Assembly: GCA_017619735.1 (NCBI GenBank)
Contig: JAFZRT010000029.1
Coordinates: forward strand, 14,087 to 78,086
Reading direction: 5' to 3'
DNA length: 64,000 bases
From: Clostridia bacterium
GTDB lineage: Bacteria > Bacillota > Clostridia > Christensenellales > CAG-138
Of this stretch, positions 2,159 to 62,896 are shown in pieces. The notes under the pieces were generated by a model, which was given only the letters and a program-made list of their open reading frames with translations, was not told where the DNA came from and did no database searches. Position 1 is the stretch's first letter. Each line of letters begins with the position of its first letter. Position numbers and translations under genes: made by a program.

Positions 2159-3469
2159 ATGATAATCACCGAACTTATTGAAAAGAAAAGGGACGGCGGC
2201 GAAATGACCGCCGAAGAGCTCGAGTTCCTTATCGGCGGTCTCGTCAATAAGGAGGTCGAGGACTGTCAGATGTCCGCGTTCATGATGGCCGTATGCTGCA
2301 ACGGAATGACGGACAGGGAGATATCCGATCTCACTATGACCATGATGCGTTCGGGCGATACGGTGGATCTTTCCGACCTTCCCGGTGTCAAGGTCGACAA
2401 GCACTCCACGGGCGGCGTCGGCGATACCACGACGCTGGTCACGGCTCCTCTCGTCGCTGCATGCGGCGGCACCGTCGCCAAGATGAGCGGACGCGGGCTC
2501 GCGCATTCCGGCGGCACGCTCGATAAGCTCGAATCCGTCCCCGGCATCAACGTGGAGCAGCCCCTTGAAAGGTTCGAGCAGATCGTGCGTGAAACGGGCA
2601 TCGCCGTAATAGGCCAGTCCGCGAACCTCGTGCCGGCTGATAAAAAGATGTACGCCCTGCGCGACGTCACGGGCACGGTCAAGAGCATACCGCTCATCGC
2701 TTCCAGCATCATGAGCAAGAAACTGGCCGCCGGCGCGGACGCCATAGTTCTCGACGTGAAGACGGGCAACGGCGCGTTCATGAACACGCTCGACGATTCC
2801 AGAAAGCTCGCGCGGCAGATGGTCAGGATCGGCGACGACCTCGGCAGGAAGACGGTCGCGATAATAACCGATATGAACCGGCCCCTCGGCATGGCGATAG
2901 GCAACGGCCTCGAAATGAAGGAAGCGATCGACGTGCTTCAGGGAAGGATACCCCTCACGGATCCGCTCGTAAGCGTATGCCTGACATTGGGCGCGCAGAT
3001 GCTCCTGCTGTCGAAGCTTGCCGAGACGCGCGAGGAGGCGGAGGAGAAGCTCAGGGATGCGCTCGTCTCCGGCCGCGGCTTTATGAAGCTCAAGTCGATG
3101 CTAAAAGCCATGGGCGGCGACACCCGCTACGTCGACGAGCCAGAACTGCTCGTCAGGACCTCGCGCATAATCCCCGTCTATCCCGTGAAGAGCGGCTATA
3201 TCGGCAGCATCGACGCGAAACAACTCGGCCTTGCGGCGTGCCTGCTCGGCGCGGGCCGCCTCAGGAAGGAGGACAGCGTCGATCCCGCGGTCGGGATACT
3301 CATGAACAAGCGCTACGGCGACCGCATAAGCGAGAACGAGCCATACGCTTATCTGTACGTAAACAACGAGGACCGTCTCGACGAGGCGCTTGCGCTCATC
3401 GAAGCGGCAGTTTCGATCTCCGACGAAGCGCCTGCGGAAATGCCCCTCGTTTACGATATCATCGAATAA
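2159..3469 (+). CDS. pdp: Pyrimidine-nucleoside (thymidine) phosphorylase
   Basis: 436-aa ORF with the family-2 glycosyltransferase signature KHSTGGVGDTTTL and typical length and architecture. Confidence 0.9.
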   Translation: MIITELIEKKRDGGEMTAEELEFLIGGLVNKEVEDCQMSAFMMAVCCNGMTDREISDLTMTMMRSGDTVDLSDLPGVKVDKHSTGGVGDTTTLVTAPLVAACGGTVAKMSGRGLAHSGGTLDKLESVPGINVEQPLERFEQIVRETGIAVIGQSANLVPADKKMYALRDVTGTVKSIPLIASSIMSKKLAAGADAIVLDVKTGNGAFMNTLDDSRKLARQMVRIGDDLGRKTVAIITDMNRPLGMAIGNGLEMKEAIDVLQGRIPLTDPLVSVCLTLGAQMLLLSKLAETREEAEEKLRDALVSGRGFMKLKSMLKAMGGDTRYVDEPELLVRTSRIIPVYPVKSGYIGSIDAKQLGLAACLLGAGRLRKEDSVDPAVGILMNKRYGDRISENEPYAYLYVNNEDRLDEALALIEAAVSISDEAPAEMPLVYDIIE

Positions 3470-60599: not shown

Positions 60600-61346
60600 T
60601 TATGCCGAAACAAGCTTCAGGAACTTGGCGTCGTTCATCTGCTCGTTCGTTAAGTACTCGCCGTTTCGGAAGAGAGCGTAATTCGTTACCGGAGTTGGCG
60701 CGTTCTGTGCCTCATCCTTTGTCTGCAGCTTTATCGCCTTGAACGGTATCCCTTGCTCTGCCGCGGTCTTTTCGATTATGGGAACGTACTTTGCGTTGAA
60801 CGGGCACTGATCGGTGTAATAGAGCACATACCCTTGTTCGTCGATATGAGGATGCTTTGCGCATTCCATGAAACGCGGCTTTTCGGAGCTTTCGGAGAAC
60901 GGCAGATACCAGAGCTGGATGCCGCAATCGGATTCGTCGCTGACGGAAAAGCCCTTATATTTCAAGTACTTCGGATCGGCGAGGAAAGGTTTTTTCTTGG
61001 CGGAGGAAAGAATGCAGAGGCCCTTCCTCCCCTTCTCCTTGCTGTCTGCAATGCATGCGTTGAGCAGATCATTCGAATAGCCATGCCCTTTGAAGGAGCC
61101 GGAGACCCACAGACAGTCGATGTACGTGTATCCATCGGCTTCTATGGGGATCCATGCGTTCTCGGCGGGTATGTATTCGATAAAGCATTTTCCGCGCTCG
61201 ATGCTCTTCAGGAATACAAGACCTTCGCTGAACCGCTCCAGCATCCAATCCTTTTTCGAAGCGACCTGAACATCCTTGTTGTTGGATATAGCACAGCAGA
61301 TGTGCTCTTTGTCGATGTTTTCCGCGGTTACTCTGATATAGTCCAT
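60600..61346 (-). CDS. GNAT-family N-acetyltransferase with YoaP-like C-terminal domain
   Basis: 248 aa. N-terminal GNAT core (CLWVSGSFKGHGYSNDLL). The C-terminal region with YYTDQCPF...ALFRNGEYLTNE matches what I remember of the YoaP-like domain. Confidence 0.65.
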   Translation of the reverse strand: MDYIRVTAENIDKEHICCAISNNKDVQVASKKDWMLERFSEGLVFLKSIERGKCFIEYIPAENAWIPIEADGYTYIDCLWVSGSFKGHGYSNDLLNACIADSKEKGRKGLCILSSAKKKPFLADPKYLKYKGFSVSDESDCGIQLWYLPFSESSEKPRFMECAKHPHIDEQGYVLYYTDQCPFNAKYVPIIEKTAAEQGIPFKAIKLQTKDEAQNAPTPVTNYALFRNGEYLTNEQMNDAKFLKLVSA

Positions 61347-61448
61347 TTTATTCGTCTCCGTTCCGATATTGCTACCGCCGCCGGGGATGCGCCGTCTGTG
61401 AAGATTATATCAGTATCTGGGCGATAACACAAGATTAGAATGTGAGAA

Positions 61449-61507
61449 GGGATGGATTCGCCCGCCTGCGGGCGGTCCGGGGCCTGCTCTGACCATCCAC
61501 CGGATGG
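61449..61507 (-). repeat. 59-nt GC-rich repeat, copy 1 (truncated version of the structured unit), starting with a tRNA-Tyr 3'-end fragment
   Basis: Identical to 61671..61729 except at 61485 (T vs G) and 61499 (A vs G). It begins with GGGATGGATTCG, the tRNA-Tyr T-arm/acceptor 3' segment. Confidence 0.85.
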
Positions 61508-61609
61508 GGATGGATTCTGAACCCCCGCTTCGCAGTTACTTGTTTGTAATATAAACTGTATGAGCGAAGCTCTGTGAGATTTTCTGCGAAAATCTCGATG
61601 GTTCAGAAT
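61506..61609. repeat. Imperfect inverted repeat built from T-arm-like fragments, enclosing two small perfect hairpins
   Basis: The left arm read on the minus strand is CTGCGAAGCGGGGGTTCAGAATCCATCCCC. The right arm read on the plus strand is CTGCGAAAATCTCGATGGTTCAGAAT (61584..61609). Both carry the variant T-loop TTCAGAAT. Internal hairpins are GAGC-GAA-GCTC and GAGATTTTC-TGC-GAAAATCTC. Confidence 0.6.
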
Positions 61610-61626
61610 ACTTTGTTCCGGCGAAT

Positions 61627-61659
61627 AAAAGATCACGGCGCTGTGCACCGTGATCTTTT
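61627..61659. terminator. Strong bidirectional hairpin terminator
   Basis: AAAAGATCACGG-(9 nt)-CCGTGATCTTTT: a 12-bp stem including the A/T runs. It lies immediately 3' (minus sense) of repeat copy 2. Confidence 0.7.
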
Positions 61660-61661
61660 AT

Positions 61662-61757
61662 TGGTGGACGGGGATGGATTCGCCCGCCTGCGGGCGGTCC
61701 GGGGCCGGCTCTGACCATCCGCCGGATGGTCATTCACTCCCGGCCCTTCGAATCCAT
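61662..61757 (-). ncRNA. Candidate structured small RNA (three-way junction) ending in the tRNA-Tyr 3' tail; contains repeat copy 2
   Basis: Base-checked helices, in plus-strand coordinates:
- P1: 61674..61682 with 61749..61757 (9 bp)
- P2: 61702..61708 with 61740..61746 (7 bp)
- P2b: 61712..61720 with 61724..61732 (9 bp)
- P3: 61681..61686 with 61691..61696 (6 bp, tetraloop)
The 3' tail CCCCGUCCACCA is identical to the tRNA-Tyr end. Terminators bound it on both sides. Not assignable to any RNA family I know. Confidence 0.4.
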
Positions 61758-61774
61758 TACATAACATGACCAAC

Positions 61775-61798
61775 AAAAAAACCGGCATGCGCCGGTCT
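61775..61798 (-). terminator. Rho-independent terminator directly after tRNA-Tyr
   Basis: Minus strand reads AGACCGGC-GCAT-GCCGGT followed by TTTTTTTG. Confidence 0.7.
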
Positions 61799-61804
61799 AT
61801 TTGT

Positions 61805-61889
61805 TGGTGGACGGGGATGGATTCGAACCATCGTAGTCTGTGACAACGGATTTACAGTCCGCTCCCTTTGGCCGCTCGGGAACCCGTCC
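61805..61889 (-). tRNA. tRNA-Tyr (anticodon GTA), type II with long variable arm, CCA encoded
   Basis: The minus strand folds as GGACGGG-TT-CCC-GAGCGGCCAAA-GGG-A-GCGGA-CTGTAAA-TCCGT-TGTCACAGACTAC-GATGG-TTCGAAT-CCATC-CCCGTCC-A-CCA. Cloverleaf checked by hand. Confidence 0.93.
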
Positions 61890-61910
61890 GTATTCGATTG
61901 CAACGATGCT

Positions 61911-61938
61911 ATTATACATGATTTTCGCGGTTTGTCAA
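61911..61938 (-). promoter_or_regulatory. Sigma-A promoter of tRNA-Tyr
   Basis: Minus strand reads TTGACA (61938..61933), 16 nt, TATAAT (61916..61911), about 20 nt upstream of the mature 5' end. Confidence 0.6.
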
Positions 61939-62038
61939 CACACATTTTTCGTCTTTTTTCGATCATGTCATTGCCCGCCGCCCCGCATGGTGTTATACTT
62001 ATCAAGAAGAATGCTTCATTCAATAAGGAGGATTTCAG

Positions 62039-62896
62039 ATGAAAGAACTGTTCGGCGCTGATATCACGACGCTCAGGAAAAACGACGAATTCGACTGCGT
62101 CGGTTACGAAACCAAAAAGATCTCCGATGAGCTCAACGGAAGTATCGAAGCCCTTTCCGACAGCGCAGAAAAGTTAGACGAAGAGACGTCGCTGCCCAAA
62201 GCTCTCCGGATACTTCAATGGGCGGCCGGTATTGGCGTATTGCTGATCGCCAGCGGGATCATCCGCAATATAGGCGATCTTCCGTTCTCGCAAATGTTCG
62301 CCAACGCACCGTGGCTCTTCGTTGTAGCCGGCATACTCGCCGTGGTCTGGGCGGCTCTCTTTATCGCCTCCATCATGAAGAAAAAGAGCGTTGCCGAAAC
62401 GGGTGTGATCGATGATTTCAAACAGGTCGTGGACGAAACGCTTGAAAAAGCCATGGCGGAGCTCAACGTTCCCGATAACGCCGAAAAGATCGACGCGCTT
62501 CTTTACAGGTACAAAACGAAGAACGGCGAAAACAAGATCTTTGATTATTCGCTTATCGGCCATTTCACGAACTCGACCGCTTACGTCTTCGGTCAGAACG
62601 GATGCTTCTGCATATTCGACGGCGGCAGCAGATTCGATATCCCTATGAAGGATCTGAAGCGGATCGAGATCGTAAGAAAGAAGATGTCTCTCATGGGCTG
62701 GAACAAGGACGTGGATTTCAACAAAGAGCCGTACAGGGAATACACCATGCCCAATGAGGACGGTTACGGCAGGATATGGCTCCGCTCGCACTGCAGGCTG
62801 ATATTCGACCTTCAGGGAGAGGAGTTCTGTTTCCGTTTCCCCGAATACGATCTCGGCGCGGTAGAGGCGATCACCGGCTTGAGAGCCGAAGAATGA
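62039..62896 (+). CDS. Hypothetical membrane protein (285 aa, two central TM helices)
   Basis: ATG behind AAGGAGG. TM segments ILQWAAGIGVLLIASGII and WLFVVAGILAVVWAALFIASI. No recognised motif. Confidence 0.5.
   Translation: MKELFGADITTLRKNDEFDCVGYETKKISDELNGSIEALSDSAEKLDEETSLPKALRILQWAAGIGVLLIASGIIRNIGDLPFSQMFANAPWLFVVAGILAVVWAALFIASIMKKKSVAETGVIDDFKQVVDETLEKAMAELNVPDNAEKIDALLYRYKTKNGENKIFDYSLIGHFTNSTAYVFGQNGCFCIFDGGSRFDIPMKDLKRIEIVRKKMSLMGWNKDVDFNKEPYREYTMPNEDGYGRIWLRSHCRLIFDLQGEEFCFRFPEYDLGAVEAITGLRAEE

Follow-up and report, generated by a model that had tools for sequence, protein, structure and literature searches.

Why should the 3' end of a single tRNA gene recur several times in the non-coding DNA beside it? 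The question is raised by the tRNA-Tyr(GUA) locus of a 64-kb stretch of a Clostridia contig (hereafter the window, i.e., the whole 64,000 nucleotides analysed), in which a sequence-only reading had listed repeated tRNA fragments and offered att-type scars, reiteration by unequal crossing-over or functional tRNA-derived RNAs as explanations. In our judgement, the roughly 440 nt on the 3' side of tRNA-Tyr (minus strand) are probably occupied by three small non-coding cassettes, stacked and in part decayed, which are of the kind described as RtT from the tyrT locus of Escherichia coli and belong to a family that is widespread in Clostridia and apparently uncurated.

Cassettes behind tRNA-Tyr in the window

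All four sequence statements of the sequence-only reading, and every coordinate in them, were confirmed when measured again: the 22-mer TTGGTGGACGGGGATGGATTCG is situated at 61804-61825 and, exactly, at 61661-61682; the second occurrence of GGGATGGATTCG is 61449-61460; GGGGATGGATTC is found again at 61506-61517, followed by TGAACC; and the 59-nt units 61449-61507 and 61671-61729 show a period of 222 nt and 2 mismatches (97% identity). The claim that this is not random sequence holds as well, since GGGGATGGATTC at no more than 1 mismatch has 5 matches in 64 kb (0.53 expected; 0 of 100 shuffles reach 5) and the GC-rich 26-nt part has 2 matches in the window (0.00 expected). The tRNA-Tyr gene, previously read on the plus strand, is placed on the minus strand by both ARAGORN and Rfam, such that "downstream" means lower coordinates and all elements are read on the minus strand. 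Apart from the strand, the earlier account did not contain the covarying three-way-junction core, the third cassette type and the family, not specific to tRNA-Tyr, that are described below. The repeated tRNA segment extends from C56 of the T-loop to CCA plus one base. Besides the gene's own 3' segment there are one exact and two decayed copies, and tail identity to the tRNA drops with the distance from the gene (22/22, ~15/20, ~15/21).

These copies are the 3' tails of structured non-coding cassettes and not bare scars. The 59-nt copies represent the 3' two-thirds of a structured element of ~98 nt, in which the tRNA-derived part forms the 3' tail instead of heading the unit as had been supposed. 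The intact element (positions of all parts in Table 1) is separated from the terminator 61798-61775 by a spacer of 17 nt and has a minimum free energy of -49.9 kcal/mol (z = -2.95). Its closing stem P1 is AUGGAUUCG/CGAAUCCAU, the 3' strand being the first nine bases of the tRNA copy, while P2, the internal loop GAGUGAA/GAG and the P3 hairpin form one arm of the junction; 61661-61682 is in its entirety copy 2 of the tRNA 3' end (22/22). This proximal cassette measures 121 nt between the tail repeats, the open reading frames (ORFs) overlapping it look spurious, and no integrase remnant was found between the repeats. Run on the 64-kb window, the covariance model of this fold (R1) finds the intact copy with 87.2 bits (E = 3e-22), a truncated copy with 19.2 bits, and nothing else. 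The truncated copy, i.e., the distal cassette, keeps the 3' half of P3, the 3' strand of P2, and P4; it is devoid of the 5' arm, the 5' strand of P2 and the GAGUGAA loop.

The middle cassette possesses an unrelated core (core 3). The copy at 61506-61517 had been recognised as a T-loop with one extra base, and is indeed part of this third, different cassette (61609..61514), whose closing stem ATTCTGAACC/GGTTCAGAAT makes use of the T-loop sequence as in the core-1 cassette. The same layout with compensated hairpins also follows tRNA-Tyr in L218, as judged by eye (BLAST did not link the two), and the right end CTGCGAAGCG.GGGTTC.GAATCC of the window cassette is common with L232 (34 nt, 91%, query end ~61502). 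Here and below, L followed by a number denotes a locus of this analysis, of which there are 258 in total, from metagenome-assembled genomes (MAGs), metagenomes and IMG/VR, each an 8-kb chunk or a short contig.

None of the 4227 models of Rfam 15 and no ARAGORN call covers the elements, the genuine tRNA-Tyr being the only one called even at E <= 10, and no Rfam family covers the elements in the 15 + 19 related loci. Concerning other known RNAs, a tmRNA, two-piece tmRNA or other tRNA-like gene was rejected because ARAGORN and Rfam are negative and a 5' acceptor strand is missing. A hammerhead or other known ribozyme, suggested by CUGAnGA and GAA strings in non-tRNA context, was likewise rejected, given a misfit of helix order and of the invariant A15.1 and the lack of any Rfam match. 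A K-turn or sarcin-ricin label for the GAGUGAA/GAG internal loop was unconvincing on inspection and is not claimed.

Conservation of the fold

R1 was built from 37 sequences, and covariation was scored on 58 homologues aligned to the model. In these, 90.6% of the cells are paired, whereas shuffles give 70.2% (none of 500 attaining 90.6%) and slid-alignment controls 33-41%; double-change cells amount to 306, versus 82 in shuffles. Strong covariation is found in four helices of the core-1 fold, and P1 is 91.5% paired with double changes at all 9 pairs. The alignment, being fitted to R1, is biased towards this structure; 13-20 compensatory changes per P3 pair were already apparent with MAFFT alone, and P3 is Watson-Crick in 460 of 463 cells.

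Tandem G-A/A-G pairs recur in P2 and P4 (94 cells). They are sensible only on the tRNA-sense strand, which is therefore the functional strand; the evidence is mixed as to an action in the form of RNA or of single-stranded DNA. P1 is the exact double-stranded sequence of the tRNA target site (top CGAATCCAT, bottom ATGGATTCG). As it replicates the target duplex, a folded single strand would mimic attB in the way CTXphi attP(+) mimics dif, a possibility suggested by this analogy.

Occurrence of the core in other genomes

Contigs of one genome per species were scanned with the pattern GGGAGTGAATGA-N(10-24)-TCAGAGCC; as the two strings were the search key, their invariance in the set is by construction, and the orthologous locus L138 exhibits GGCAGUG in place of GGGAGUG. 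The pattern is present at at least 120 loci, almost all of them in gut or rumen MAGs of Oscillospiraceae and other Clostridia. Among the matches listed, a same-strand tRNA precedes the core in 36, at a distance of 61-74 nt in 30 of these 36, and most of the other 6 are later members of tandem arrays. When compared with the terminal 21 nt of the tRNA beside it, the tail agrees at 19 positions or more in 22 of 29 first-in-array elements (11 perfectly; again among the matches listed), versus a mean of 12.6/21 for non-cognate tRNAs. Core-1 cassettes are situated behind at least 16 tRNA isoacceptor types, with a tail that copies the local tRNA; a unit specific to tRNA-Tyr, as had been contemplated, is thus not what is found. 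The IMG/VR contig L004 shows the same layout with other stems and a tail equal to its own tRNA's 3' end; it begins inside a tRNA and is therefore probably host flank. A phage attP was considered for the core-1 matches in the IMG/VR contigs L004 and L013/L017 and dropped, no integrase being nearby.

Flanks of one kind enclose no fewer than three unrelated cores behind tRNA-Tyr: core 1, core 2 (L204, L241) and core 3 (L218, window). The boundaries are identical in more than 30 independent loci, with 111-145 nt between the repeats. Dispersal over unrelated sites had been named as the sign of a generic repeat, and it applies in part: 79 of 134 pattern matches (among the matches listed, viral contigs included) were scored as non-tRNA context ("type B") by a 5'-flank motif, whereas within the 64-kb window core 1 occurs only behind tRNA-Tyr. 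The literature was searched for miniature elements linked to tRNA genes and for the string of the core, and nothing relevant came up.

Two arrangements may be mentioned separately. The longest array seen (L121, 5940-6512, minus strand) comprises 5-6 core-1 cassettes behind tRNA-Ala(cgc) of a Ruminococcus MAG, with a period of 111 nt, shortened tails and no terminator in the unit. In L058 (2226-2332, minus strand), a core-1 cassette lies inside an rRNA operon in the order 23S, tRNA-Lys, cassette, 5S, 5S, tRNA, and as no terminator precedes it, it must be co-transcribed with the rRNA.

Filled and empty sites

A comparison of orthologous tRNA-Tyr loci, proposed in the sequence-only reading, revealed both a filled/empty pair and a locus that has kept its cassettes. 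In L231, a seven-tRNA operon carries a core-1 cassette in the interval from tRNA-Tyr to tRNA-Leu; L155 and L144 are the empty versions, with identical tRNA-Tyr, 7-nt spacer and tRNA-Leu. The difference amounts to 144 nt, i.e., a cassette of 120 nt plus a second copy of a 24-nt segment. The Tyr-Leu junction is also empty in eight related arrays (L006, L007, L005, L156, L182, L195, L202, L252), counted only where it fell inside the retrieved DNA, and a gain in L231 is the more parsimonious explanation. A "foreign" 5' arm in L231, taken as a hop from another tRNA, was considered and dropped, as two substitutions account for it. The duplicated segment, 21-29 nt long across loci, passes CCA into the local flank by 3 nt in L231 and by 8 nt in L058 (29-nt segment), which argues that the target was copied as DNA or as a precursor. 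No empty site was found for the species of the window itself: the 26-mer "tail + second terminator" is unmatched in metagenome contigs, and exact-protein look-ups returned only the source scaffold and one short contig. The identical tRNA-Tyr 21-mer belongs to a plain gene without cassette in 117 of 120 metagenome loci.

Cores that resemble each other most (89-96% identity) are located behind different tRNAs, each 5' arm being complementary to its own tail, and in one MAG the cassettes behind tRNA-Val (L051) and tRNA-Leu (L113) have P2 and P3 in common and differ in the arm. In arrays, the unit that is repeated includes the terminator ("tail + terminator + spacer + arm + core"), as found in L089 (tRNA-Tyr, period 144), L138 and L241, and different sequence follows the last tail in all three.

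L138 was recognised as the orthologous locus by a neighbouring protein of 285 aa, whose sole homologue (50% identical) is encoded on the L138 contig, with synteny kept on one side. Its tRNA-Tyr is followed by a terminator and by two cassettes, of which the first is intact (72 bits) and the second breaks off after P3. The cores of the window and L138 are ~90% identical, with compensatory changes in P2 and P3 (CCATCC/GGATGG to CCGTCC/GGACGG); spacers and terminators are unrelated. Either selection for one intact copy or re-seeding by active copies may account for this retention.

Relation to known systems

The closest known case is the one the sequence-only reading had named, i.e., the E. coli tyrT locus. 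E. coli K-12 has four RtT units with a period of 178 nt, which occupy the tyrT-tyrV interval and the DNA that follows tyrV; they all terminate in the 19-nt 3' end of tRNA-Tyr and score 133-137 bits with RF00391. The consensus of this family comprises a closing helix GgGaaGG/CCuuCcC between arm and tail, an unpaired ccaCCACCA, and internal hairpins including cgAGCG.AGcgAGA; the 3' end of the annotated 171-nt rttR of K-12 is the CCA of the tail copy, and copy number varies from 1 to 14 across 5426 E. coli genomes. The tyrT repeats were first described around 1980, the older literature including Rossi et al. (1981) and Bosl and Kersten (1991). E. coli rtT has been reported as a processed RNA, and its mode of action was still called unknown in 2024 (bioRxiv 10.1101/2024.07.17.603846).

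The window locus resembles RtT in adjoining the 3' side of a co-oriented tRNA-Tyr gene, in the tandem arrangement of units that each end in a copy from T-loop to CCA, and in a fold whose arm pairs with the T-stem-3' part of this copy while the acceptor strand and CCA are left unpaired. Further likenesses are a multi-hairpin interior with a CGAG...CGAGA hairpin, GA-flanked like P4, and a copy number that varies between genomes. Despite this similarity there are clear differences: the unit is 143 nt long here and 178 in E. coli; an intrinsic terminator is contained in each unit here, whereas none was seen in the E. coli spacer; at least 16 tRNA types are used here and not tRNA-Tyr alone; and the hosts are Clostridia instead of enterobacteria. 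RF00391 (gathering threshold 45 bits) gave no match in window positions 61200-62100 at E <= 10, nor in 19 related loci at E <= 1.

Concerning integrative elements, cis-mobilizable elements (CIMEs) are integrase-less derivatives of elements that target tRNA genes. Both these and the cassettes exhibit direct repeats of a tRNA 3' segment starting in the 7-nt loop, an intact tRNA gene, tandem accretion at one tRNA and no recombination genes between the repeats. Direct repeats from the T-loop, as in att sites of the T-loop class, are present in the window (22 nt, exact) and in 22 of 29 related elements, and L231 versus L155/L144 supplies a filled and an empty site; no integrase or remnant was found between the repeats in the window. 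The cassettes differ from CIMEs in a length of only 111-145 nt, in a covarying fold, in an inverted target copy on the other flank and in a duplication that passes CCA into the local flank and so looks like target copying instead of identity carried by the element. An autonomous parent with core 1 was not seen in the 258 loci, each an 8-kb chunk or a short contig.

The intervening sequences (IVS) of 23S rRNA, which are removed by RNase III, also are extra structured RNAs of sporadic occurrence that replace the hairpin loop of a stable RNA and are closed by an extended stem, and genes of the PF05635 IVS protein adjoin cassettes in L079 and L031; an IVS, however, lies within functional rRNA, whereas here the tRNA is untouched and the insertion is confined to a partial 3' copy. 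Folded single strands serve as recombination sites in integron attC and CTXphi attP(+). At the level of mechanism the cassettes are comparable in their strict Watson-Crick stem compensation, with almost no G-T/G-U, and in a P1 duplex equal to the target site, but differ in that no integron integrase or Xer-type site, attI or dif was identified here. Miniature inverted-repeat transposable elements (MITEs) and repetitive extragenic palindromic (REP) sequences, of which one would expect numerous copies at unrelated places, terminal inverted repeats of their own and a short target duplication of constant length, are a poor match: the 64-kb window contains a single locus, the sequence of the arms varies with the target and not with the element, and the duplication is 21-29 nt long; the core module is nonetheless dispersed in other genomes.

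Origin of the cassettes

The origin that we favour, with moderate confidence, is by RtT-like insertion cassettes gained by recombination in the segment from T-loop to CCA, the arrays then growing and decaying. Such a cassette comprises, in this order, a terminator, a short spacer, an arm of 9-15 nt that is the reverse complement of the tRNA T-loop/T-stem-3' sequence, a structured core and, as boundary, the tRNA 3' end in direct copy, beginning in the middle of the T-loop and reaching CCA. In a first step, which is displayed by the loci themselves, a DNA event within this segment would add the cassette and leave a duplication of 21-29 nt. The tRNA would thereby retain a correct 3' end and acquire the terminator of the cassette, the displaced copy becoming the tail. 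Repeated gain via the direct repeats would then lead to tandem arrays with decaying distal copies, a pattern seen in several genomes, and unequal crossing-over may change the arrays further. On the model of E. coli rtT, the strong tRNA promoter would drive transcription of the cassette by read-through, and the RNA may fold into a junction closed by arm:tail pairing and be trimmed to a tRNA-like ...NCCA 3' end.

Several observations weigh against this reading. Of 1652 cells, G-U accounts for 29 and A-C for 24, both being equally rare; such a scarcity of G-U is not usual in an RNA under selection and agrees better with a hairpin at the DNA level. As most loci have a terminator before the element and no room for an own promoter, transcription may be low. 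No recombinase is present in or near the window cassette, and in agreement with the earlier statement no integrase or other mobile gene appears in the gene lists within ~6 kb on either side. Across the loci no recurring recombinase was found, and all-against-all BLAST of the ORFs within 3 kb of the elements disclosed no recurrent protein family, the most frequent neighbouring one being generic and present at 9 of ~120 loci. No known mechanism accounts for the inverted target copy in the 5' arm, and the filled/empty pair could also reflect a precise loss via the 24-nt repeats. That two very distant genomes have kept the element in the same place would be expected of a host-selected RNA no less than of a mobile cassette. 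Finally, the covariance models of RtT and of the core-1 family do not find each other; to judge from sequence, the core-1 family appears to be an analogue or at most a very distant relative of RtT and not a member of RF00391.

The alternative that survives best, which we nevertheless regard as unlikely, is a resident, host-selected small RNA (sRNA) gene, i.e., an RtT-like 3' trailer of tRNA operons that is inherited vertically, occasionally duplicated or lost, and not mobile. In this case, processing of the RNA by the tRNA 3'-end machinery, or competition with that machinery, would demand a tail that matches the tRNA. Four covarying helices and strand-specific tandem G-A motifs would be expected of such a gene, and so would an intact copy at an orthologous tRNA-Tyr across very deep divergence with randomised spacers, and an orientation that always follows highly expressed stable-RNA genes (L058 even in an rRNA operon without intervening terminator); the processing reported for E. 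coli rtT agrees with it as well (bioRxiv 10.1101/2024.07.17.603846). It is at odds with the sporadic occurrence (117 of 120 identical tRNA-Tyr 3' ends carry no cassette), with nearly identical cores behind different tRNAs and with the same core in dispersed non-tRNA elements that duplicate their targets, as well as with at least three unrelated cores on common flanks and with an upstream terminator where an own promoter is absent. The earlier proposal of functional tRNA-derived RNAs is touched by the same evidence: a functional RNA is plausible by the rtT analogy and the covariation, but only its tail derives from the tRNA.

Large integrative elements (a prophage, an integrative and conjugative element or a CIME) that entered the tRNA-Tyr T-loop via a tyrosine integrase and were since deleted, leaving att ends, are improbable. 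The constant boundaries of a 111-145-nt unit in more than 30 loci, which in the filled/empty pair makes up the whole difference, the RNA-like covarying fold, the lack of an integrase remnant in the window segment and of a full-length parent in the 258 loci all speak against them, even though the repeat runs from T-loop to CCA as in tRNA att sites, the arrays look like tandem accretion, and recombinase-bearing elements do use such 3' ends (L024, L124 at "...GCTCCACCA"). Of the att-type scars originally suggested, the geometry (T-loop to CCA or just after) and the filled/empty pair thus stand, whereas the unit is a complete cassette and not what a deleted island leaves behind.

A slightly poorer prospect still is a generic REP- or MITE-like palindromic repeat that came to lie beside the tRNA by chance. 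The type B matches (79 of 134 among those listed) and the ~430-nt composites that some matches form at terminators would suit it, whereas the restriction to the tRNA within the 64-kb window, the fixed tRNA-to-core distance (61-74 nt in 30 of 36 tRNA-linked matches), the fixed orientation, and a tail and arm matched to the target would not. Purely local, neutral and decaying reiteration of a chance tRNA 3'-end duplication by unequal crossing-over or slippage is very improbable, since the differing copy number and decay state among the window, L138 and L089, the 1-14 RtT copies of E. coli and the degenerate distal copies of the window are compatible with it, but a non-tRNA core found at no fewer than 120 loci of different species, behind at least 16 tRNA types and with compensatory substitutions, contradicts it as sole cause, such that the unequal crossing-over proposed earlier survives as a process of array expansion and contraction and not as the origin of the unit.

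If cassettes are indeed gained by recombination at tRNA 3' ends, one may tentatively ask for a wider class. The cassettes, the RtT repeats and the core-1 composites that duplicate terminators might possibly constitute one unrecognised class of small non-coding mobile elements, which would insert at the 3' ends of stable-RNA or other terminated units by copying the target's terminal hairpin region, with a direct copy of 21-29 nt on one side and an inverted copy of 9-15 nt on the other. The substrate of recombination or priming would be a single strand folded such that its closing stem replicates the target duplex, and the enzyme would be either new or a hijacked host enzyme. Such a class, if real, would explain the origin of the tyrT repeats.

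The RtT architecture is no longer an enterobacterial oddity, given that a family unrelated in sequence is common in gut and rumen Clostridia, with several interchangeable cores, gain and loss as a discrete unit, and flanks always matched to the local tRNA. What was a single-locus curiosity becomes a comparative data set of at least 100 loci, with a covariance model and a filled/empty pair, on which origin, mobility and function can be tested. The cassettes place extra copies of common integrase target sites beside tRNA genes and may thus steer where islands land. The elements carry tRNA 3' ends and terminators, and a chimera of two is found in one locus (L072).

Surroundings of tRNA-Tyr

The positions of the gene, its signals and the cassettes are compiled in Table 1. 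A similar TTGACA...TATAAT sequence is present upstream of the orthologous tRNA-Tyr in L138. The extended hairpin of the first terminator (61769-61808) also pairs ACCAAC of the tRNA 3' end; through this pairing with the ACCA(A) end, the tRNA gene contributes its 3' end to a long bidirectional-terminator stem. The terminator hairpin regularly reaches the tRNA's own ACCA(A) end (window 61769-61808, L138, L231, L204, L218; e.g., ACCAACAAA...TTTGTTGGT).

Table 1. Positions of tRNA-Tyr, its signals and the three cassettes in the window; the parts of a cassette follow the entry for the whole
Feature	Position	Strand	Basis
Promoter-like site, TTGACA-16 nt-TATAAT, sigma-70-type, 12/12 consensus positions	61911..61938	minus	sequence scan
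tRNA-Tyr(GUA) gene, CCA encoded; last 21 nt + flanking A (61804-61825) = copy 1	61889..61805	minus	ARAGORN; Rfam tRNA 53.7 bits
Intrinsic terminator directly 3' of tRNA, 8-bp stem + T run	61775..61798	minus	repeat/terminator scan
Intact core-1 cassette, three-way junction, 98 nt	61757..61660	minus	fold, covariance model R1, covariation
P1 5' arm	61749-61757	minus	core-1 fold
P2	61740-61746 with 61702-61708	minus	core-1 fold
Internal loop GAGUGAA (opposite GAG)	61733-61739	minus	core-1 fold
P3 hairpin	61712-61732	minus	core-1 fold
P4 hairpin, short, other arm of junction	61684-61697	minus	core-1 fold
P1 3' arm	61674-61682	minus	core-1 fold
Unpaired tail CCCCGUCCACCA(A)	down to 61661	minus	core-1 fold
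Second terminator-like hairpin, A-tract/13-bp stem/T-tract, bidirectional, directly after tail of intact cassette	61627..61659	minus	18-nt arms, 94% complementary
Middle cassette, unrelated core (core 3), three-way junction, -40.8 kcal/mol	61514..61609	minus	repeat search + fold
Core-3 5' arm ATTCTGAACC	61600-61609	minus	
Core-3 two-hairpin body	61524-61599	minus	
Core-3 3' arm GGTTCAGAAT, T-loop copy plus one extra base, running into tail copy 3	61514-61523	minus	
Tail copy 3, decayed (GAATCCATCCCCaTCC..., ~15/20), fused to next truncated element	61498..61517	minus	repeat search
Distal cassette, 5'-truncated core 1	61461..61505	minus	59-nt repeat, 97%; R1 19.2 bits, 5' half absent from alignment
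Tail copy 4, most distal remnant (CGAATCCATCCC, then diverged, ~15/21)	61449..61460	minus	repeat search

The gene at 60600-61346 (minus strand), previously called GNAT, has a precomputed Pfam match to PF14268 (YoaP). It has the same orientation as the tRNA and the cassettes, with a TATAAT-like box between the last tail and its start codon, and its place is taken by a different, TMEM164-like gene in L138.

Further loci

A chimera was found in L072 (240-339), where the left half is of the tRNA-linked type (arm TGGGATTCGAGG) and the right half of the dispersed type (GTGACCGAGCCGCAGCGAGAAAAGGCCC...), which points to dispersed core copies that have recombined or been mis-assembled. Behind tRNA-Met in L134 (1251-1440, minus strand), the 5' flank holds GGGTTATGAGCCCGA, the reverse complement of the tRNA anticodon stem-loop, and the 3' side a tRNA copy from the variable region to the 3' end; this locus may represent an anticodon-loop version of the same phenomenon.

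Composite elements of ~430 nt that contain core 1 are situated at intrinsic terminators of unrelated genes (L048, L097, L109, L093, L042, L039) and have an own terminator-like hairpin at their end. In the three readable loci, the whole terminator hairpin is duplicated on both sides of the composite: AAGGGTCACCGGCGGTGACC (L048), AGAAGCCGTCC... (L097) and AAAAAAAGCGGCATATG (L109).

Genes of the "23S rRNA intervening-sequence protein" PF05635 directly follow tRNA-linked cassettes in L079 (3936-4298) and L031 (530-880), and in L232 (6982-7100) a truncated copy, whose right end is the one in common with the core-3 cassette of the window, lies between two tRNA-Tyr tails. The genes are preceded by arrays of short hairpins with a fixed hexamer spacer (ATGATG/CATCAT, GAAATC/GATTTC or GTGAAG/CTTCAC), and such arrays are present in L124 and L218 as well.

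Large serine recombinase (LSR) genes end directly upstream of "...GCTCCACCA + terminator + cassette" in L124 (1386-2903, minus strand; Pfam Resolvase, Recombinase and Zn-ribbon) and L024 (~2405-3460, minus strand; assigned by tblastn, 32% identical to that of L124). In both, an LSR element is apparently integrated in the acceptor-3' part of the tRNA or of a tail copy, and L057 exhibits the same type of tRNA-Ala locus without the LSR element.

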